Of a stretch of DNA of 64,000 nucleotides, positions 15,265 to 26,841 are shown piece by piece. The position numbers and the translations under genes are program-made. The notes beneath the pieces were generated by a model. The model was not told the origin of the DNA and searched no databases. It saw only the letters and a list, made by a program, of their open reading frames with translations. The stretch is from Escherichia coli (lineage in GTDB: Bacteria > Pseudomonadota > Gammaproteobacteria > Enterobacterales > Enterobacteriaceae): assembly GCF_003018255.1 (NCBI RefSeq), contig NZ_CP027440.1; one strand, 5' to 3'. The first letter of the stretch is position 1; every line of letters begins with the position of its first letter.

Positions 15265-15437
15265 GATGAGCATTCAGATAGTGGTTCACGCGCACGGGTT
15301 GCGCACCGCCGGAGTAAGGATTTACTGAGGCTAGCGACGCCATCATAACGAGCAAAAAGTGCGATCGTCAAAGAAGAATCGTGAGGAAATGCTGCATTGC
15401 TGACATTTACGCCAGCAATGCAGCGCAAAAGAACTTT

Positions 15438-17705: not shown

Positions 17706-19142
17706 TCAGCGTTTGTAACCTCCGCCCAGCGCACCGGTGAGTTGAATGGAGGCATCCAGCCACTGCCCTTGCAATAACAGGCCATTGGCCCGCTCACGCA
17801 GCGCGGGGATTCTGGCTTCGCTGACGCGGGAACCAGCAATGATGCCCGCGTTAAAGCGCGCCTGCGCAAGACCTACCACACGCAAGGCATCGTGCTCAAT
17901 TTGCGCCTGATGCTGGTTTTTCTCCGCCAGTGTCTGAACCTGGCTGGCCGCCCGCGCCACGTCATTTACCGCTTCAACCACCGCTTTGTTGTAGCTGGCG
18001 ATAGACAAGTTGCTTTCGGCTTTTGCGATATCGAGATTGGCGTTAAGACGACCACTATCGAAAATGGGTAGCGTCAGGCCTGCCGTAACGCCCATTTGCT
18101 GCGCGGAATGACGGAACAGATCGCTTAAGTGCAACGCATCCTGTTGCAGAAAGGCCATCAGGTTGATGTCAGGATAAAATGCCGCTTTTGCCGCATCAAT
18201 AGTGCTTAACGATGACTCAACGTACCAGTGCGCCGCCTGCAAATCTGCCCGCCGGGCCAGTAAGGAGTACCCGAGTTCATCAGGAAGCTGACTTGCCACT
18301 TTCGGCAACGCGACCGGTTTAAGCTTCAATGACTTTGTCTGGTGGTTGGTGAGCGCACTTAACCGTGCCTCAATAATTTTCATTTTCCCCGCGACATCGT
18401 TGAGCTGCTGCCGGGTTTTGCTGGCATTAATATCGGTTTCCACACCTTCAACTGAAGAAGTAATCCCGTTCTGATATAGCTGGCGATCGGTCGCGATAAT
18501 GGTGTTCTGCTCTTTTTCGATTTGCTGCAAGACCGTGTTTAACGCCGCCTGGGTTTGCCACTCCCAGTACAGGCGGGCTACGCTGCCAGCCAGCAATTGG
18601 CAGGTTTGCTCGCGTTCCGCCGCCCGTGCTTTAACCGTACCGAGGCGAGCAGTAACCTCCGCCCGATTCTTTCCCCAGATATCGAGATGCCAGCCCGCCG
18701 TTAAGCCAAAAGTACCGTTGGTGTACCACGGACCGGTCGTACCTGCGGCAGGATCGTTCAGAGCAAACGGCCCCATTAACCCTTCTGCAGACATTTTTTG
18801 CCGCTCCATATCCGCAGAAAAGTCGATCTGCGGACCATCCTGAGTGGCAACTGCCTTCGCCTGGGCTTCAGCCAGCTGAATGCGCTGTTCAGCCACCTGC
18901 ATATCCGGTGCGTTCTGTAGTGCGTTATTAATTAAGGAAGTGAGTTGATTATCGTGATACTCCAGCCACCATTGGCTGTCTGGCCAACCATTTTTCAGCG
19001 CCGTGGGTAATACGGTGTCAACTTGTGCAGCGGGCGTTTGCTGGCTTAACGCCTGGCGGGTTTCATGCATAGGTGCACACCCGGCCAGCATCAGTAACAG
19101 CGGAAAACAGGCGATGGCGGGATAAAAGGAATCACGATTCAT
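17706..19142 (-). CDS. mdtQ: outer-membrane efflux lipoprotein MdtQ (OprM/TolC family), reading frame apparently intact
   Basis: uninterrupted 478-codon ORF from ATG 19142 (MNRDSFYPAIACFPLLLMLAGC lipobox); track ORF extends to TTG 19232. Confidence 0.8.
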   Translation of the reverse strand: MNRDSFYPAIACFPLLLMLAGCAPMHETRQALSQQTPAAQVDTVLPTALKNGWPDSQWWLEYHDNQLTSLINNALQNAPDMQVAEQRIQLAEAQAKAVATQDGPQIDFSADMERQKMSAEGLMGPFALNDPAAGTTGPWYTNGTFGLTAGWHLDIWGKNRAEVTARLGTVKARAAEREQTCQLLAGSVARLYWEWQTQAALNTVLQQIEKEQNTIIATDRQLYQNGITSSVEGVETDINASKTRQQLNDVAGKMKIIEARLSALTNHQTKSLKLKPVALPKVASQLPDELGYSLLARRADLQAAHWYVESSLSTIDAAKAAFYPDINLMAFLQQDALHLSDLFRHSAQQMGVTAGLTLPIFDSGRLNANLDIAKAESNLSIASYNKAVVEAVNDVARAASQVQTLAEKNQHQAQIEHDALRVVGLAQARFNAGIIAGSRVSEARIPALRERANGLLLQGQWLDASIQLTGALGGGYKR

Positions 19143-19365
19143 GGGGGAATAATCAGGTAAGAAAAGGTGCGCGGAGATTACCGTGTGTTGCGATATATTT
19201 TTTAGTTTCGCGTGGCAATACATCAGTAGCAATAAAACGACATATCCAGAAAAATATACACTAAGTGAATGATATCTTCCTATTTATCTTAATCGTTTAT
19301 GGATAGCGGCAAAGGGCTTCGTTTTTTCCTATACTTATTCAGCACTCACAAATAAAGGAACGCCA

Positions 19366-19449
19366 ATGAAAATTATACTCTGGGCTGTATTGATTATTTT
19401 CCTGATTGGGCTACTGGTGGTGACTGGCGTATTTAAGATGATATTTTAA
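19366..19449 (+). CDS. yohP: small membrane protein YohP (27 aa)
   Basis: ATG 19366, translation MKIILWAVLIIFLIGLLVVTGVFKMIF, AAGGAA RBS 7 nt upstream. Confidence 0.65.
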   Translation: MKIILWAVLIIFLIGLLVVTGVFKMIF

Positions 19450-19544
19450 AATTAATTAATGTCATCAGATCCGAAAATAACGAGAATATTTCAGTCTCTC
19501 ATCCTGTTGCGCTCCTGTCATGTGCATTGCTTCATATAATCACT

Positions 19545-19760
19545 GGCGCAAGGAGCGCGCAGGGGGCGGCCAATCGCCGCCGCCCCCTGCACCCCCGGGC
19601 TCTGGCGAACAAAATCGCCGCTGCGCGGTGCCCTCGGCTTATCCCTTACGGCTACCGGGTCGGGCGCGAGGTAACATCCCTGTAAAACGCGCCCTCAGCC
19701 CACATCCATGTGGGCTGCCCCGGCCTTCAGGGAACGCCTCGGCGATTTTGACGCCACCAA
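19545..19760. repeat. GC-rich intergenic element made of several perfect hairpins (possible boxC/BIME-like repeat or structured RNA)
   Basis: perfect 10-bp stem AGGGGGCGGC/GCCGCCCCCT (about 19561-19588), perfect 10-bp stem CAGCCCACAT/ATGTGGGCTG (about 19696-19717), plus GGCGA..TCGCC and GGCG..CGCC mini-hairpins; lies between yohP and dusC. Confidence 0.4.
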
Positions 19761-19821
19761 ACAACCGTGCGGCCTATTGATAAAGAGCTAACACATTGTC
19801 AAAAAACATCACTATGGTTTC

Positions 19822-20769
19822 TTAGAGTTTCTCGATATCAATTGCCTGAATAGCCCTTGCAATATCAGGGGAATTATTCAACACCCGAACATGCTGAAAT
19901 AATTCCGTTGCTTCATCGTATTCTTTACGCAAATAACTCAACCACTGTTTAATCCGCGCAACGTGATATAACCCGGTATCGCCCTGCTTTTCCAGACGGG
20001 TATATTTTTGCAGCAAAGCAACTACCTCCGGCCACGGCATTCGCGGTTCGTTATATTTTACCACCCGGCTCAGGTTGGGAATATTGAGCGCCCCGCGACC
20101 AATCATCACTGCGTCGCATCCGCTGATCGTCATGCATTGTTGCGCACTCTGCCAGTCCCAGATTTCACCGTTGGCAATCACAGGAATATTCAACCGCTGG
20201 CGAATCTCGCCAATCGCCTGCCAGTCAATATGCTCCGCGCGGTAACCCTGCTCTTTTGTCCGCCCATGTACTACCAGCTCCGTAGCGCCAGCCTGTTGCA
20301 CCGCATCGGCGATTTCAAATTTCTTCTCACCGCTGTCCCAGCCCAGACGCACTTTTACGCTGACGGGCAAATGCGCCGGTACAGCTTCGCGCATCGCTTT
20401 TGCACCCTGATAGATGAGTTCAGGATCTTTGAGTAACGTCGCCCCACCGCCGCTACCGTTAACCGTTTTCGACGGGCAGCCGCAATTGAGATCCACGCCC
20501 CAGGAACCTAACTCGACCGCACGGGCGGCATTCTCTGCCAGCCATTGTGGGAACTGACCTAACAACTGCACGCGCACCAGCGTACCGGCTGGTGTCCGGC
20601 TGGCGTTTTGTAGCTCAGGGCAAATGCGATGAAAGACTTTTACCGGCAGCAGTTGATCCACCACGCGGACAAACTCGGTGATGCACAGATCGTAGTCGTT
20701 AACTTCGGTCAGCAATTCACGCACCAGAGAGTCGAGTACACCCTCCATCGGTGCCAGTAACACACGCAT
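19822..20769 (-). CDS. dusC: tRNA-dihydrouridine synthase C
   Basis: 315-aa ORF, Dus family TIM-barrel motifs (LAPMEGV, conserved Cys in NCGCP). Confidence 0.93.
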
Positions 20770-20830: not shown

Positions 20831-22024
20831 TCAGCGTGGTTGCAAACAGTTATCTTCTTTCCAGCCGTACAGCCACTCCATGCCGCGGTAAAACTCTGCC
20901 TGCGATTTCCCTTTCCACAACAGGTTACGTACCTGGCGCTCTACTCCTGCGGCATGATAAACCCGCCCCATTTCACGGGTCGACCAGACGATGCGCGCGG
21001 TGCGCGGAATACGTACCGACTCATACAGCGCAAAGGCTTGTGCCGCATCACCCTCACACTGCGCCAGCGCCTTACCCAGTGTTACCGCGTCTTCCAGCGC
21101 CATACAGGCACCCTGCGCCATATACTGCGCCACCGGATGGGCCGCATCGCCCACCAGCGTAATGCGCTTCGTTCCCCACTTCGCTACCGGTTCACGGTCG
21201 GCGGTTGACCAGCGTCGCCAGGAGGTCGGTTTATCCAGCATCTGGCGCGGACGGGGGTGAATCCCTTCAAAGTAAGAGAGCACTTCCTCTTTACTGCCAT
21301 CCTTCACGCCCCACTCTTCCTGCTGGCGGCTGTGGAATGTCACCACCAGGTTATACTGCTTGCCGCCACGTAAAGGGTAATGCACCAAGTGACAGCACGG
21401 CCCCGCCCACAGTACTGGTGCGTTAATGCGCAAATCTTCCGGCATATCGGCACAATCGATAACCGCACGGTAGACCACATGCCCGGTGACACGCGGCGCA
21501 TCGCCCAATAAGCTCTGGCGCACCACTGACTTCACGCCGTCACAGCCAATCAGAATATCGCCGATCCAACTATTGCCGCGATCGTCGAAAACGGTGACAT
21601 CGTCTTCTGTCTCGCGAATATCCACGACGTTGGTGGAGGTGTGATATTCCACGTCCGGATGCGTCAGTACCGCTTCCCACACCGAGGCATGAATATCAAC
21701 CCGGTGGATCACCGCGTAAGGGCCGCCGAAATGATCGCGAAAGGCCTGACCGGTTTCAATGCGCACCACTTCTTCGGCGTTTACCGCATCCATCATGGTG
21801 ATGTGATCGGTGAATACCGCGCGCTGGCGGGCGATTTCACCGACGCCGAGGCTATCCAACGCCGAAAACGCATTTGGCCCCAACTGGATACCTGCGCCAA
21901 TCTCACCGATCTCATGCGCCTTTTCCAGCAGCACCACTTTGATCCCCTGGCGGGCCAGTGACAACGCAGTTGCCGCACCGCCGATCCCGCCTCCCACAAT
22001 TACTGCGCGTGTCACTTTAGTCAT
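20831..22024 (-). CDS. FAD-dependent aromatic monooxygenase, 3-hydroxybenzoate 6-hydroxylase-like (MhbM-like)
   Basis: 397-aa ORF, N-terminal GxGxxG FAD fold ([17 protein letters not shown]), DG motif (CDGVKSVVR) and GD motif ([15 protein letters not shown]); AGGAG RBS. Confidence 0.88.
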
Positions 22025-22038
22025 TATGGTTCTCCTGG

Positions 22039-22683
22039 TCAGGCTGAAATTTTATCTTGTTGATTTTCTGGCGCTGCGGCAATGAACGCTGGCAGCTGCG
22101 TGCAGGCGTCGTACACCGCTTTGCAGCGCGGATACCCGCTCAGATCGCAGTTCATACGTAGCGCGTTCGCCCACTGTGGAACAAGGCAGCAATCTGCCAG
22201 CGTCGGCGTCTCGCCCACACAAAATTGCCCCGACTGGCTCTGGCGCAGTAGCTGTTCCACCGCGCTTAACCCTTGCTGGATCCAGTGCGCATACCAGCGT
22301 TTTTTATCTTCTTCACTGACGTTCAGCTCTTCGGTCAGGTAGCGCAGCACGCGTAGGTTATTCAATGGATGAATATCGCAGGCGATGGCATAGACAATTT
22401 CCAGCACCTTGTTGCGGGCCGGTTCTTCCTGCGGCATCAGCGGAACTTGCGGGTAGTGACTCTCCAGCCAGTCAATAATCGCCAGCGATTGTCCGAGTGA
22501 TTCGCCCTCGTCGGTCAGCAGCGTCGGCACCAGCCCGACCGGATTCATCCGCCGGTAGGCCAGTTCGTTTTGCTGACCAATGCGGATATTCACCCCTTCG
22601 GTCTGGTAATCGATACCCTTCAGCGCCAGCGCAATGCGCACCCGGTAAGACGCTGAACTATTAAAAAAACTGTACAGCTTCAT
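22039..22683 (-). CDS. glutathione-dependent maleylpyruvate isomerase (zeta-class GST, MhbI-like)
   Basis: 214-aa ORF from ATG 22683 (MKLYSFFNSSASYRVRIALALKG) with GAGG RBS; zeta-GST N-terminal motif; track TTG 22698 rejected. Confidence 0.85.
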   Translation of the reverse strand: MKLYSFFNSSASYRVRIALALKGIDYQTEGVNIRIGQQNELAYRRMNPVGLVPTLLTDEGESLGQSLAIIDWLESHYPQVPLMPQEEPARNKVLEIVYAIACDIHPLNNLRVLRYLTEELNVSEEDKKRWYAHWIQQGLSAVEQLLRQSQSGQFCVGETPTLADCCLVPQWANALRMNCDLSGYPRCKAVYDACTQLPAFIAAAPENQQDKISA

Positions 22684-22690
22684 CATCACC

Positions 22691-23392
22691 TCAGACAATC
22701 TTCACCGCGATAGGCGTTAAGCCCTCGACGTTGCCCGTGATCACATCACCTTTGACTACTGAGCCAACCCCTTCCGGCGTACCGGTAAAGATTAGATCGC
22801 CCGGTTGCAGTTCAAAGAAGCCTGACAGGTAGCTGATGGTTTCATTCACTGACCAGATGAGATGACGAATATCGCTGCGCTGATGATCTTCGCCGTTAAC
22901 CTGTAACCAGATAGGTGCGTTATCAATACCGCCAGTTTCGCTGGCTTTGTGCAGCGGCGCGATGGGGGCCGAGAGATCGAACGCTTTGCCGATTTCCCAC
23001 GGGCGGCCCATCTGGCGCATTTCCATTTGACGGTCACGGCGAGTCATATCAAGACCCGTGGCATAACCCCAGACATATTCATGGGCGTTTTCCAGCGGGA
23101 TATCACTGCCTTTTTTACCAATCGCCACCACCAGTTCAATTTCATAATGGTAGTTATCGGTCTGCGCCGGATACGGCAGCGCCAGCGTTTCGCCAGCGGC
23201 AACCGGAACAATGGCATCCGCCGGTTTGCAGAAGAAGAATGGCGGTTCACGATCCGGATCAAAGCCCATTTCGCGGGCGTGGGCGGCATAGTTACGTCCG
23301 ACGCAGTAAACGCGGCGTACGGGGAATTGTTCATCACTGCCAACAACCGGTACGGTAACGGGCGCTTGTGGTTCGAATACGTATTGAGTCAT
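22691..23392 (-). CDS. fumarylpyruvate hydrolase (FAH family, MhbH-like)
   Basis: 233-aa ORF with fumarylacetoacetate-hydrolase family features; GGGAGAG RBS; operon position. Confidence 0.85.
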
Positions 23393-23407
23393 TTTCTCTC
23401 TCCCAAA

Positions 23408-24436
23408 TTAATAACGTGCTTCGCGGAACAGCCCCAGGGCTTCTTGTACCGGTCTGTCCGAAAAACTAAATAAAACGGTATCTTGCGTGGTCTGGAACGA
23501 CACGCCGTGCCAGGTCGGCACCACGAAGATATCTTTTGCACTAAAGCTGAAGGTTTCATTGCCGATAGTGACCTGCCCGCTACCTTCCACCACATGGTAG
23601 ATGGTGCTGTCAGTGGTACGCGCCACGCGTGAGGCAAACCCTTTCGGCAGCAGTTGCAGAAAAGCGCCCATCGACGGCATCGGATAGCCACCGGTGACCG
23701 GGTTGACGTAGCGCATTTTGTAGCCATCCCACTCATCGGCATCGCCCAGGCGGGTTAAATCGTGTAGCACTTCGCGGCTACGGTCATAACGGTAGTTAAA
23801 GATGGGCGAGGAGTTCCCGGTCTGATGGCGCAACGGCAACATATTGGCAGCGTAACGCGGCAGGTAATCGCCCTCTTTACGCGTTACTGGTTGTTGCTCC
23901 TCCGGGTAATCTTCGGCAAAACCGCAGCCCAGAGTGTTCACTAATGGCAGATCCAGCCCATCGAGCCAGATAACCGGTTCGTCGCCAGGGTTACCGTGAT
24001 CGTGCCAGCGCCACTGCGGGGTCAGGATAAAATCGCCCTCATTCATTGACGTGCGTTCGCCATCAACGGCGGTGAATGCCCCTTTACCTTCAACAATAAA
24101 ACGCAGCGCCGACTGGTTATGGCGATGACTCGGTGCCACTTCGCCCGGCATGATCAGTTGCAAACCGGCATATAAAGTCGCGGTGATGGAAGACTGCCCG
24201 CGCAGCGCCGGGTTTTCCAGCACCAGCACGCGGCGCACGGCTTCTTTCGCGCCAATCAGGCTGCCGCTCTCCAGCAGCAACGGGCGGATCTCCTGATAAT
24301 TCCAGTACGCTGGCGCACAGTTAGCGTTGGGCGTTTTTGGCACCAGATGGTGCAGTGACTCCCACAGCGGGGTCAGGTTTTGCCCGGAAATATGCTGATA
24401 AAATTGCTCGCGGCTATTTTGATTGTTATCAGTCAT
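23408..24436 (-). CDS. gentisate 1,2-dioxygenase (bicupin, MhbD-like)
   Basis: 342-aa ORF, two cupin halves with His-rich metal sites; AGGAG RBS. Confidence 0.88.
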
Positions 24437-24447
24437 TGGGATGCTCC

Positions 24448-25806
24448 TTATTCGTTCACAACACCTGCGTGAGGCAGTGAGTCAGGGACAGAGGTCGACT
24501 GGCGAACCACGGTGATCAGCTGGGTTAACATCACCGCACTGATCGCCGCGGGCACAGCGATAATGAAAAACAGGGTGTCGAAAGAGAAATTCATCGCCAT
24601 CATAACGCCGCCAGACAGCGAGCCAACAATCGCGCCGCAGCGGCCCACGGCGTTTGACCAGCTCACGCCCGTGGCGCGACTTTGTGTTGGATAAAGTGTT
24701 GCGGTCAGCGCATTCAGCCCCACCTGCGATCCGCTGATGCCAATGCCGGTGCCGAAAATCGCCAGCGCCATTAGCCATAATCCGTCCTGGCTTAAGCCAA
24801 TCATCACGATGCATACAGCGCCTATGGCATAGCTCAGCGCCAGTACGCGGAAAGGATTGAACTTATCCATAAGCACGCCCAGCGCCAGCGCGCCCAACGT
24901 ACCGCCAATCTGGAACGCGGCGGTAACCCAGGAGGCATGTTGCAGGTCGATGCCGCGATGGTTGAGCTGCGTTGGCATCCAGCTTGAGAGCAGGTAAATA
25001 ATCAGCAAGCTCATAAAGAACACCACCCACAGCATCAACGTGATGGGTAACTGACGCCCCATAAACAGTTGACGAATGCTGCCTTTTGTAACGGAGGCTG
25101 ATTCAATGAGATAAAAGTGGGTATCGACATAACGCTCGCGGATGATGGCGCTGACGGTTTTCGCAATCACCGCCTGGGGTAGCTGGCGGCGCACCTGCCA
25201 GCGTGGCGATTCCGGCAGAACCACCAGCAGTGCAACAAACAGCATCAGCGGTAATACGCCACCCAACACCAGGATCCCGTGCCAGCCAATCACCGGCACC
25301 AGCTGCGCGCTGACAATCCCGCCAAACGCCGAACCCAGGGTAAAGCCGCAAAACATCAGCGTCACCAGCGCGCCGCGGCGGCGGGCAGGCAGATATTCCG
25401 AGGTCATGGTAATTGTATTTGGCATCGCGCCACCCAGCCCAAGGCCGGTGAGGAAACGCAGGAATACCAGCGTTTGCAGATCCGGTGAGAAAGCCGAGGC
25501 GAGGCTTAACGCGCCAAACAAAAAGACGCACAGCTCAATCACCCGTTTGCGGCCAAAGCGATCGGACAACGGACCACAAAGCAGTGCGCCTGCGGTTAAC
25601 CCCAGCAGACCCGCGCCAAAAAGCGGGGCGAGATCGCCTGCGGTGAGTTGCCAGTGAGTGCGAATATCAGGGGCGATAAAGCCGATAGCCGCGGTGTCAA
25701 AACCATCGAGCATTACCACCAGAAAACAGCAGATGATAACGCGCCACTGCATCTTGCCGACCGGAGCAGCATCGATCAGTGCTTGTAAATCACGTCGTTG
25801 AGTCAT
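24448..25806 (-). CDS. MFS aromatic acid:H+ symporter (3-hydroxybenzoate transporter-like, MhbT-like)
   Basis: 452-aa ORF, 12 predicted TM segments, MFS signature ([11 protein letters not shown]). Confidence 0.88.
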
Positions 25807-25884
25807 AGTAAATGCCTCAGTGCAGGTAAGGTAGATGTTTCATTTGTTTTATGTATGTTGCGATATTGTGATTAAAGAGATGAA

Positions 25885-26841
25885 ATGTACAATGGCATTT
25901 CGGACAGAGAGATAACCTGGAGGTTATGGCAAATGGCAAACTGGGCGCAGAAACTAAAGCTTCATCACCTGCAAATGCTGGTGGCGCTGGGTGAACAGGG
26001 CAATCTGACCCATGTCGCGCGGATGATGAATATCACCCAGCCTGCGCTGTCGAAATGGTTGTCACAACTCGAAGATGAGATCGGCCTCACACTCTTTGAG
26101 CGGCACAGCAAAGGACTTCGTCCTACTGAAGGCGGCAAATTGTTATTGCAACATGCCCAACGGTTAATCAATGACATGGAGCGCTCGCAACATGAACTGG
26201 CCCGTTTTAAACAAGGTGGACTGGTCGGCAGTCTGAAAATTGGCTGTTCTCCCGTCGCCACTGACTGCGTATCCCAGGCGATTTTGCATTTGCTCAAGGA
26301 GATGCCAACTCTACACCTGAATATCGAAGAGAAGGTGATGACCCCATTGCTGCAAGATCTGTTGGCAGGTTCTGTCGATGTGGTGGTTGGGCGAATTGGC
26401 GGTCGCGCGTTGCAGCTGCCGCTGAATTATCGCGTGCTCTACACCGAGCCGGTGTGTTTTGTCGCCCGTCCTGAGCATCCACTGGCGAAATACGCCACCC
26501 TCAGCTGGAATGATCTTGCTAACTGGCGGTGGATAGTCTGGCCGACAGGTACCCCCATCCGCATCAGCATTGATAATGCGCTGGTAGACCACGGCGTGAT
26601 GCTGCCAGAAAACACGATTGAGTCGGCGTCGATGAACGTCAGTACCAACCTGTTACAAAGCAGCGATATGATCTCTATTTTGTCATTACGCCTGGCGCAA
26701 CGTTATGCCAGCCAGGGACAACTGGTGATTCTCAACCTGCCAAAGATAGAACAGAAAGGCAGCGTCGGTGTGTTCTGGCGCAATAACGAAACGCCTTCTT
26801 ATGCTTTAAGTCAGTTTCTGCACTTTTTACAGCAGAATTAG
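25885..26841 (+). CDS. LysR-type transcriptional regulator, divergent from the catabolic operon (MhbR-like); alternative start ATG 25933
   Basis: N-terminal HTH (LHHLQMLVALGEQGNLTHVARMMNITQPALSKWLSQLE) and LysR substrate-binding domain; GGAGG RBS precedes the 25933 ATG. Confidence 0.85.
   Translation: MYNGISDREITWRLWQMANWAQKLKLHHLQMLVALGEQGNLTHVARMMNITQPALSKWLSQLEDEIGLTLFERHSKGLRPTEGGKLLLQHAQRLINDMERSQHELARFKQGGLVGSLKIGCSPVATDCVSQAILHLLKEMPTLHLNIEEKVMTPLLQDLLAGSVDVVVGRIGGRALQLPLNYRVLYTEPVCFVARPEHPLAKYATLSWNDLANWRWIVWPTGTPIRISIDNALVDHGVMLPENTIESASMNVSTNLLQSSDMISILSLRLAQRYASQGQLVILNLPKIEQKGSVGVFWRNNETPSYALSQFLHFLQQN

Follow-up and report, generated by a model that had tools for sequence, protein, structure and literature searches.

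The GC-rich element between yohP and dusC of Escherichia coli is the repeat TRIP1c/RRS-dusC, whose base-paired fold appears to be maintained on the G-rich strand

The TRIP1 repeats of Escherichia coli were first reported by Rudd (1999) and have been described by Li et al. (2024) as sequences of 62–65% GC, with at most five copies per genome and each type bound to one locus: TRIP1a between aqpZ and ybjE/lysO, TRIP1b 41 bp past putP and with an internal deletion of 125 bp, TRIP1c 43–44 bp past yohI/dusC, TRIP1d between alx and sstT, and TRIP1e between copA and ybaP (PMC10888264). TRIP1c measures 273 bp and is 94% identical to TRIP1a; both orientations exist at the a and c loci, and forward and reverse TRIP1c copies occur in similar numbers (PMC10888264). 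The same two elements, a and c, were found again as the Replication Risk Sequences (RRS) RRS-lysO and RRS-dusC by Pham et al. (2023, 2024) and Kusi-Appauh et al. (2026). Here, we analyzed the GC-rich multi-hairpin element that lies between yohP and dusC in a 64,000-nucleotide stretch of E. coli DNA (contig NZ_CP027440.1; hereafter called the “window”). The element is TRIP1c/RRS-dusC, a sequence already described and not a new one, and we found no evidence to the contrary. To this, the present analysis adds evidence from covariation, loops of the TwoAYGGAY/CsrA type, and paralogs in Pseudocitrobacter. Possibly new are the covariation, the core of the TwoAYGGAY/CsrA type, and the natural flips, uncoupled between loci, that are described below. 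The main text of the TRIP1/RRS papers that we searched makes no mention of CsrA, Rfam, AYGGAY, covariation, or hairpins.

How do the RRS act? The G strand blocks DNA polymerases I, II, and IV in vitro and slows polymerase III in vivo, and the documented activity is exerted at the DNA level, during replication, and not by a small RNA (PMC10287960, PMC11194060, PMC13308219). In ssGap-seq, a peak of RecA and SSB, spanning about 2 kb of lagging-strand single-stranded DNA (ssDNA), depends on the element; ectopic insertions generate such peaks as well, while inverted copies produce no RecA peak and yet are capable of complementation (PMC10287960, PMC11194060, PMC13308219). The two copies are conditionally essential, as a double deletion is obtained only along with the amplification of a 200-kb region or in a background with other copies, and deletion or inversion alters supercoiling genome-wide (PMC10287960, PMC11194060, PMC13308219). 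In single-molecule assays, almost every encounter produces a gap when the lagging template is the G strand, and about 66% do so when it is the C strand (PMC10287960, PMC11194060, PMC13308219). The authors of the RRS studies name the pilE G-quadruplex (G4) element as the only other example (PMC10287960, PMC11194060, PMC13308219). In this element of Neisseria gonorrhoeae, a G-rich strand likewise adopts a structure that leads to a gap or nick during replication, and this gap or nick serves a biological purpose; however, the element is a short 16-nt G4 of unrelated sequence, tied to a small RNA (sRNA) promoter and to antigenic variation, and has no multi-hairpin domain.

The window element occupies the spacer between the 3′ ends of the convergent neighbors yohP (19366–19449, plus strand) and dusC (19822–20769, minus strand), 56 nt from the former and 43 nt from the latter, the stop codon of which is at 19822–19824. 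This distance to the dusC stop, the length of 273 bp, the GC content of 64.5%, and the identity to TRIP1a all agree with the published TRIP1c. The unit is 99.6–99.7% identical to the yohP–dusC locus of K-12 MG1655 and 94.5–94.7% identical to the aqpZ–lysO copy of K-12 (L006:3019-3289), and K-12 holds the three expected copies, at dusC, at lysO, and as a short form past putP. The published G4 motif, GGGGGTGCAGGGGGCGGCGG, which we took from PMC11194060, has a single match in the window, located within the element, and no other match even when up to two mismatches are allowed; none is expected by chance. Of 15 sliding windows, 13 show a negative GC skew of the plus strand (−0.039 overall), and the gene order is as in K-12, so that the minus strand, which is the G strand, would serve as the lagging-strand template, as published; this assignment derives from the skew, not from mapped origins. 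The element shows no difference from TRIP1/RRS, be it in the locus, the sequence and its length, the G4 motif, the GC content, or the strand with respect to replication. The explanation that best covers the evidence as a whole, and that we regard as very probably correct, is that the element is TRIP1c/RRS-dusC, one of the two full-length RRS of E. coli, in which the fold of the G strand blocks polymerases and leaves a gap.

An earlier note on this DNA, made from the letters alone, had singled out a GC-rich non-coding block at 19545–19760, and this block does stand out, with 69% GC against 41% and 49% in its flanks and 52% in the whole window. The interval is too short, though: the comparison of copies places the actual unit at about 19506–19778. 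Its left boundary, at GTTGCGCTCC, is sharp in all copies, with a fuzzy similarity reaching about 20–35 nt further left in some of them, while its right end is fuzzy. The two perfect 10-bp stems that had been noticed are both real, as the second pairs at ten of ten positions (19696–19717) and the first is contained within a 12-bp stem (19559–19590), and the small GGCGA/TCGCC hairpins are likewise present (at about 19603–19620). A 16-nt outer stem closing the central domain (19610–19625 with 19735–19750) had been missed, and direct repeats, CCCCGG, occur at 19593 and 19718. Overall, the earlier interpretation is partly supported: it was right about the repeat, the structure, and the artefactual open reading frame (ORF), and it missed the documented role in DNA replication. 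The features of the unit are collected in Table 1.

Table 1. Positions of the features of the TRIP1c/RRS-dusC unit, numbered from the first letter of the window
Feature	Position	Strand	Remarks
Full TRIP1c repeat unit, 273 bp	19506..19778	-	G-rich strand is the window minus strand, the strand under selection for pairing
Near-perfect 222-bp core, RRS-dusC	19541..19762	-	differs from the K-12 lysO copy at 1 of 220 aligned bases
Published G-quadruplex motif GGGGGTGCAGGGGGCGGCGG	19577..19596	-	exact match
12-bp GC hairpin, arms GCAGGGGGCGGC (19559-19570) and GCCGCCCCCTGC (19579-19590)	19559..19590		12/12 complementary, 8-nt loop; overlaps the G4 motif
Terminal stem GCGCTCCT / AGGAGCGC around an AT-rich loop holding TATAAT	19509..19558		inverted repeat I5; helix 13 of the alignment, 90.6% paired
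Central TwoAYGGAY-like domain: outer stems, inner stem with tandem GA, two GGA-loop hairpins	19599..19760	-	match of covariance model R1
Outer closing stem, 5′ arm (plus strand)	19610..19625		16-nt inverted repeat I1, pairs with 19735-19750 (88% complementarity)
Outer closing stem, 3′ arm (plus strand)	19735..19750		inverted repeat I1
Hairpin 1, arms CAGCCCACAT (19696-19705) and ATGTGGGCTG (19708-19717)	19696..19717	-	10/10 complementary, 2-nt CC spacer; minus-strand loop ACAUGGAUGU
Hairpin 2, minus-strand loop ACAGGGAUGU at 19674-19683	19662..19694	-	seen in folds
Small GGCGA/TCGCC stems	~19603-19620		present in the sequence
TATAAT hexamer	19535..19540	+	probably not a feature of the family
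86-codon ORF	19520..19780	+	translation artefact of GC-rich DNA

Next, we investigated how the unit folds and whether the fold is conserved. With RNA parameters, the minimum free energy (MFE) is −150.9 kcal/mol for the minus strand (z = −4.8) and −140.0 kcal/mol for the plus strand (z = −6.4); with DNA parameters, the corresponding values are −83.2 (z = −6.2) and −79.3 kcal/mol (z = −5.7), and the two strands are thus nearly equal, which fits the partial activity of the C strand. The z-scores refer to 100–200 dinucleotide-preserving shuffles, and no shuffle matched the real fold in any of the four runs. On both strands, therefore, the sequence folds far better than its shuffles, and the structure proposed in the earlier note is further supported as a conserved one by covariation.

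The covariation was assessed in an alignment (A7) of the G strands of 17 copies from Escherichia and Pseudocitrobacter, for which the RNAalifold consensus comprises 72 pairs. In this alignment, 96.6% of the cells are paired, and compensatory double changes are found at 27 pairs, as compared to 2–6 in slid controls, in which the pairing partners were shifted by 1–3 columns. The 14 central domains of the TRIP1 type, when taken alone, contain 51 pairs, which are 99.6% paired and of which seven are compensated, against none in every slid control. Moreover, all of the one-sided substitutions in these domains lead to G·U on the G strand, equivalent to A·C on the complement, and across the 17 copies the G·U cells outnumber the A·C cells by 66 to 5. 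With RNA parameters, the G strand is more stable than its complement by 8–33 kcal/mol in all 17 copies. These comparisons indicate that the entire base-paired fold of about 270 nt, and not the G-run alone, is under purifying selection, with a preference for the G strand. It is this strand that blocks more strongly in the experiments, and the preference agrees with the experimental strand asymmetry as well as with the residual activity of the C strand.

Nearly every helix shows compensatory base-pair changes among the Escherichia and Pseudocitrobacter copies. In the 12-bp hairpin, the NU14 and E1V33 copies have two pairs altered from C-G to A-T, and the diverged Pseudocitrobacter paralog has additional compensations. 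In the central domain, CGCCGAGGCG (minus strand, 19735–19750) and AGCCGAGGGC (19630–19639) form the helix CC[GA]GGC / GCC[GA]GG, in which a C-G pair is replaced by U-A in four copies and a further pair is split between G-C and A-U, 6 to 8. In hairpin 1, three stem pairs are compensated in the TRIP1d-type copies, and more are compensated in the Pseudocitrobacter paralog, while the loop CATGGATG is invariant in all 17 aligned copies. A stem pair of hairpin 2 changes from G-C to A-U in 5 of the 17 copies, and its loop occurs as AGGGAU, AGGGAC, AAGGAC, and A-GGAC, with GGA kept in every variant. As a separate observation, the yohP–dusC element of Escherichia sp. MOD1-EC7003 (L033:5576-5890) has lost hairpin 1, together with its CAUGGAUG loop, through a clean deletion of 25 nt, and is otherwise intact.

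Which structure blocks the polymerase? The G4-aware MFE fold prefers the 12-bp hairpin (−43.9 kcal/mol locally) over the overlapping G4 (−18 kcal/mol in isolation), although this is only a pointer, since it was computed with RNA parameters and an approximate G4 term. The hairpin is thus both kept by compensation and favored by the fold, which raises the question of the blocking structure.

According to the literature, the sequence of events is as follows. Upon unwinding by the replisome, the G-rich strand (here the minus strand of the window and the lagging template) folds into a very stable structure, attributed to the G4 at 19577–19596. The polymerases are blocked by this structure and the Okazaki fragment is abandoned, leaving an ssDNA gap of about 0.3–2 kb that SSB and RecA occupy. 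From the present analysis, the multi-hairpin fold may add to the block, possibly as much as the G4 does. The RRS authors propose that such transient gaps may serve as topological relief valves at the borders of the Ter macrodomain.

We then surveyed the distribution of the element. BLAST against complete E. coli genomes detected it in 5,425 of 5,426, typically at three places and in a few genomes at up to 8–10, which makes it a dispersed repeat. The dusC-locus copy is near fixation, being present in 5,404 of these genomes. The paralogous sites that we traced are the aqpZ–lysO spacer, the alx–sstT spacer (strain N32), a short form past putP (K-12 L034:2856-2994), and, in one strain, a short form between aqpZ and lysO. 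The short forms lack the central ~125 nt, with their junction at the direct repeat CCCCGG. The genes next to TRIP1 copies nearly all encode inner-membrane transporters or channels (aqpZ, lysO, putP, efeU, alx, sstT, and copA, as well as mdlB and amtB/glnK in Pseudocitrobacter), a neighborhood also remarked upon by Li et al. (PMC10888264).

In an exact 19-mer scan with one genome per bacterial species, true copies were found only in Escherichia species and Pseudocitrobacter, together with two tiny contaminant contigs and chance matches. The two contigs, L027 (583 bp, Bacillus sp.) and L010 (432 bp, Pseudobutyrivibrio), have low coverage, and the TRIP1 copies in them are flanked by E. coli sequence; contamination of these assemblies by E. 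coli is probable. The flank in L010 is the putP 3′ region, whereas L027 joins a putP-side to a lysO-side flank, a junction that resembles the TRIP1-mediated rearrangements reported by Li et al. (PMC10888264). In Pseudocitrobacter, the mdlB–glnK spacer (L011:1865-2440, L031:5313-5890) contains two TRIP1-like elements arranged head-to-head. The second of these is only about half identical, aligns along the whole unit, and has the same architecture. A search of E. coli genomes for this paralog, which is of the TwoAYGGAY type discussed below, returned only three partial matches, and the subfamily is thus essentially absent from E. coli.

The orientation of the element varies among natural strains. 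Relative to the window and K-12, the dusC copy is flipped in NU14, E69, Escherichia sp. E1V33, and E. whittamii, and relative to K-12 the lysO copy is flipped in O157 and E69; flipped copies were located at L035:24375 (NU14), L022, L026, L019, L018, and L008. The flips are independent, as E1V33 and E. whittamii combine a flipped dusC copy with a lysO copy oriented as in K-12. In the 49 kb around dusC in NU14, the gene order and the negative GC skew are those of K-12 and the window, and the G4-like sequence GGGGGTGCAGGGGGAGGAGG is on the plus strand, the leading-strand template. A simple site-specific inversion at the terminal repeats was considered as the origin of the flips and rejected, because at dusC and at lysO alike the two orientation haplotypes are distinguished by their adjoining sequence as well. 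The orientation of the laboratory strains is therefore not universal, which fits the complementation by inverted copies and the weaker but real block by the C strand.

Four points weigh against the replication-gap reading or limit it. First, natural flips occur and are uncoupled, so that the lagging-strand template is not the G strand in every lineage. Second, the physiological role as a relief valve is a hypothesis of its authors. Third, a model in which any stable fold suffices leaves unexplained the invariant loops, CATGGATG and the GGA-containing loop, that stand beside covarying stems. Finally, the element has been published as “widely conserved in enterobacteria”, a broader range than that of the 19-mer scan, in which, however, diverged copies are missed by exact matching.

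The same distribution bears on whether the element is mobile, as a non-autonomous element resembling a miniature inverted-repeat transposable element or as a decayed relic, aimed at the 3′ ends of genes, with the replication effect as a structural by-product. Copies are found at four to five Escherichia loci and at a different locus, mdlB–glnK, in Pseudocitrobacter, and the alx–sstT spacer shows a presence/absence polymorphism, as it is occupied by the element in N32 and by a boxC-like sequence in K-12. Both orientations occur at one site with differing adjoining sequence, a short derivative with the same internal junction recurs at three loci, and the left end is sharp, with a weak terminal inverted repeat, TTGCGCT.... 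However, four different flanks were inspected without revealing a target-site duplication, the right end lacks a sharp boundary, and the terminal similarity is weak, extending over 7–14 nt. No transposase-bearing relative was found, the plasmid matches are carried chromosomal segments, and a 20-mer from the right end had no match in viral contigs. The copy number shows no expansion, with each type at one locus, and the dusC copy is nearly fixed. The full and short forms at one site can be explained by deletion between the CCCCGG direct repeats, and the conditional essentiality speaks for a host function. Accordingly, the mobile-relic idea of the earlier note is weakly suggested by the polymorphisms in presence and orientation, while a target-site duplication and a transposase partner are both missing, and we consider a mobile origin of this kind to be improbable as the explanation of the element.

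The position between two convergent 3′ ends could also point to a bidirectional transcription stop or an RNA stabilizer for yohP and dusC, similar to the role proposed for repetitive extragenic palindromes (REP) and the bacterial interspersed mosaic elements (BIME). The extreme stability of the fold on both strands is compatible with this role, as are the lack of any other terminator-like site in the spacer, as scanned, and the location of other copies just downstream of genes. On the other hand, no U-tract follows any stem on either strand, and the lysO copy of K-12 lies 31 bp past a separate, canonical aqpZ terminator. Such a role would also leave the conserved loops and the replication phenotype unexplained, and we regard it as very improbable. 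An intrinsic terminator in the strict sense is rejected, as the scan of the spacer detected none and the U-tract is lacking.

Could the element belong to another known repeat family, or encode a small protein? Like REP/BIME, boxC, and the enterobacterial repetitive intergenic consensus (ERIC/IRU) repeats, it is a GC-rich, palindromic, intergenic sequence that follows genes, and these families likewise form cruciforms and are associated with rearrangements. In contrast, REP (~35 bp) and boxC (~56 bp) are much shorter, the sequences are unrelated, and those families reach tens to hundreds of copies as compared to usually one to five. No RNA family of the REP or ERIC type matched in the Rfam scan, in agreement with the earlier note on this point; the REP-derived naRNA4 was detected elsewhere in the loci, but not here. 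The further suggestion of a boxC/BIME-type repeat fails, as the element belongs to the separately named TRIP1/RRS family, and NC_000913 annotates no feature in the yohP–dusC spacer. In the alx–sstT spacer of K-12 (L005:2547-2944), at the place where N32 carries TRIP1d, there is an unrelated repeat, CCCTCTCCC...GGGAGAGGG...GGGGTGAGGG, which we take to be boxC-like. It does not align with the element, and this spacer is thus occupied by different repeat families in the two strains.

As for a protein, an 86-codon ORF can be called across the element, but of the 16 other aligned copies, 14 have the frame interrupted at codon 3 or 6, and several copies are frameshifted. The two diverged Pseudocitrobacter copies comprise one with a stop at codon 9 and one with neither an ATG nor a stop in the frame concerned. 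In addition, the ORF has no match in NCBIfam. The protein-coding reading is therefore rejected, and the ORF at 19520–19780 is an artefact, as had been suspected. With neither similarity to the other repeat families nor a conserved frame, we count REP/BIME, boxC, ERIC, and a small protein gene as refuted, and the probability left to them is negligible. The TATAAT at 19535–19540, which had been pointed out as a consensus hexamer, is indeed present, but is private to the window copy, as the paralogs have ATAAAG or ATATTG. The promoter scan at this hexamer detected no sigma-70-like site and no usable −35 hexamer, and a promoter at TATAAT is thus rejected as a feature of the family.

We further examined the likeness of the central domain to a described RNA motif, TwoAYGGAY (RF01731; Weinberg et al. 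2010), which has a long, often very large, closing stem (P1) and two terminal hairpins with AYGGAY-like loops, and which is also a dispersed multi-copy repeat in a gamma-proteobacterium (the Psychromonas seeds). In an Rfam scan run with an E-value threshold, the motif matched at 19612–19751 on the minus strand with 30.2 bits (E = 0.044; model positions 1–168), spanning the full model length and remaining below the gathering score of 43. Every full TRIP1 copy scores 26–31 bits on the G strand over the full model length, while the diverged Pseudocitrobacter paralog reaches 49.2 bits, above the gathering score. Conversely, when only TRIP1 central domains are used to build a covariance model, the Pseudocitrobacter paralog is recovered with 37.2 and 35.7 bits (E ~1e-6, positions 1–162). 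As the E. coli copies are below the Rfam threshold, we call the core TwoAYGGAY-like and not a member of the family.

Structurally, the long P1 stem corresponds to the 16-nt stem of 19610–19625 and 19735–19750, together with an outer GGCG/CGCC extension. The loop of hairpin 1, AUGGAU, fits AYGGAY, while loop 2 (AGGGAU, AGGGAC, or AAGGAC) has R in place of Y; some RF01731 seed sequences also carry AGGGAY loops. The element differs from the family in being far GC-richer and in possessing an extra 3′ module, composed of the GC hairpin, G-runs, and the terminal stem, which lies outside the Rfam model. Furthermore, TwoAYGGAY is filed as an RNA without known function, whereas the RRS have a demonstrated activity at the DNA level.

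The loops also have the character of CsrA-type sites, as ACAUGGAUGU and ACAGGGAUGU stand in hairpin loops with their GGA cores about 25–30 nt apart. Both fit the CsrA/RsmE site consensus, which we take to be (A/U)CANGGANG(U/A). The GGA in hairpin loops and a spacing of about 20 nt between the two sites, compatible with bridging by one CsrA dimer, are shared with CsrB, CsrC, and RsmX/Y/Z, but CsrB and CsrC contain 9–22 sites as compared to two, and the element is repeated, variable in orientation, and without a known promoter, transcript, or CsrA binding. Rfam files TwoAYGGAY in clan CL00106 together with the Csr/Rsm RNAs, and Gardner and Eldai proposed it as a CsrA-binding sRNA and reported a tandem GA within its stem (PMC4333381).

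From these likenesses, the element, or its central 160 nt, might also be an RNA of the TwoAYGGAY type: a minus-strand transcript, as the 3′ end of a dusC read-through, would present the two GGA loops, which could bind a CsrA dimer and thereby titrate CsrA or couple the host transcript to it. This possibility is compatible with the DNA-level role, and we consider it unlikely. In its favor are the G-strand matches to TwoAYGGAY in every full copy, bridged to the family by the paralog that passes the threshold, the invariant loops beside covarying stems, and the inner-stem tandem GA, which is found in TwoAYGGAY as well. The fit of the loops to the assumed consensus, the published CsrA proposal, and the Csr/Rsm clan point in the same direction, and the scan detected no terminator-like site from the dusC stop to the element. 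On the other side, the G strand is co-directional with dusC, but at the lysO copy of K-12 it is antisense to aqpZ and lysO and has no co-directional upstream gene, and in other strains the orientation relative to the neighboring genes is flipped. Neither the promoter scan nor the comparison of copies revealed a conserved promoter, and the E. coli copies are under the Rfam gathering score. Among the listed rows of a CsrA cross-linking (CLIP)/omics table, those of dusC and ybjE are negative in the yes/no columns, taken here without their headings, and are not significant (PMC5694010). Moreover, the compensation and the tolerance of G·U would fit G·T pairs in folded ssDNA equally well. We therefore advance only tentatively, as a proposal from sequence that is more likely wrong than right, that the TRIP1/RRS core is a diverged member of the TwoAYGGAY family, in which the invariant GGA loops would be putative sites for a trans-acting factor, with CsrA as the obvious candidate.

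Several other features of the window were recorded. At 15269–15349 on the minus strand, the Peptidase-S11 RNA motif (RF03039) scores 72.8 bits, its gathering score being 34.8; no other family exceeded its threshold anywhere in the 64 kb. Just upstream of the element, a weak match to the anti-GcvB sRNA AgvB at 19472–19532 on the plus strand (22.9 bits against 56, E = 0.22) is most likely due to chance. The mdtQ gene (17706–19232, minus strand) has an intact frame of 508 amino acids and is a frameshifted pseudogene in K-12. Directly past dusC, an ORF block at 20831–26841 is headed by a 3-hydroxybenzoate 6-monooxygenase (NCBIfam NF006021, 755.8 bits); it is missing from K-12 and NU14, where yohJK follow dusC, and is thus a strain-specific insertion abutting the RRS locus.

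What does the identification of TRIP1c/RRS-dusC mean? As a programmed trigger of replication gaps flanking the Ter macrodomain, the element is among the more remarkable non-coding features of the E. coli chromosome, and since it has already been published, finding it again adds nothing by itself. The fold, which selection maintains, in particular on the G strand, provides evolutionary support for a structure-based mechanism, and its conservation opens to question whether the real block is the G4 or the 12-bp hairpin together with the multi-hairpin domain. The natural in-place flips, which are uncoupled between the two loci, offer ready tests of the orientation dependence reported from the laboratory. 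The invariant CsrA-type loops and the link to TwoAYGGAY go beyond the current model, and through them an orphan family of RNA motifs is tied to an element that is amenable to experiment. If the putative membership in this family is true, the RRS would have a second life at the RNA level as CsrA-binding transcripts, or, alternatively, the TwoAYGGAY “RNA” motifs of gut Clostridia and gamma-proteobacteria may be RRS-like replication-gap elements that act at the DNA level.

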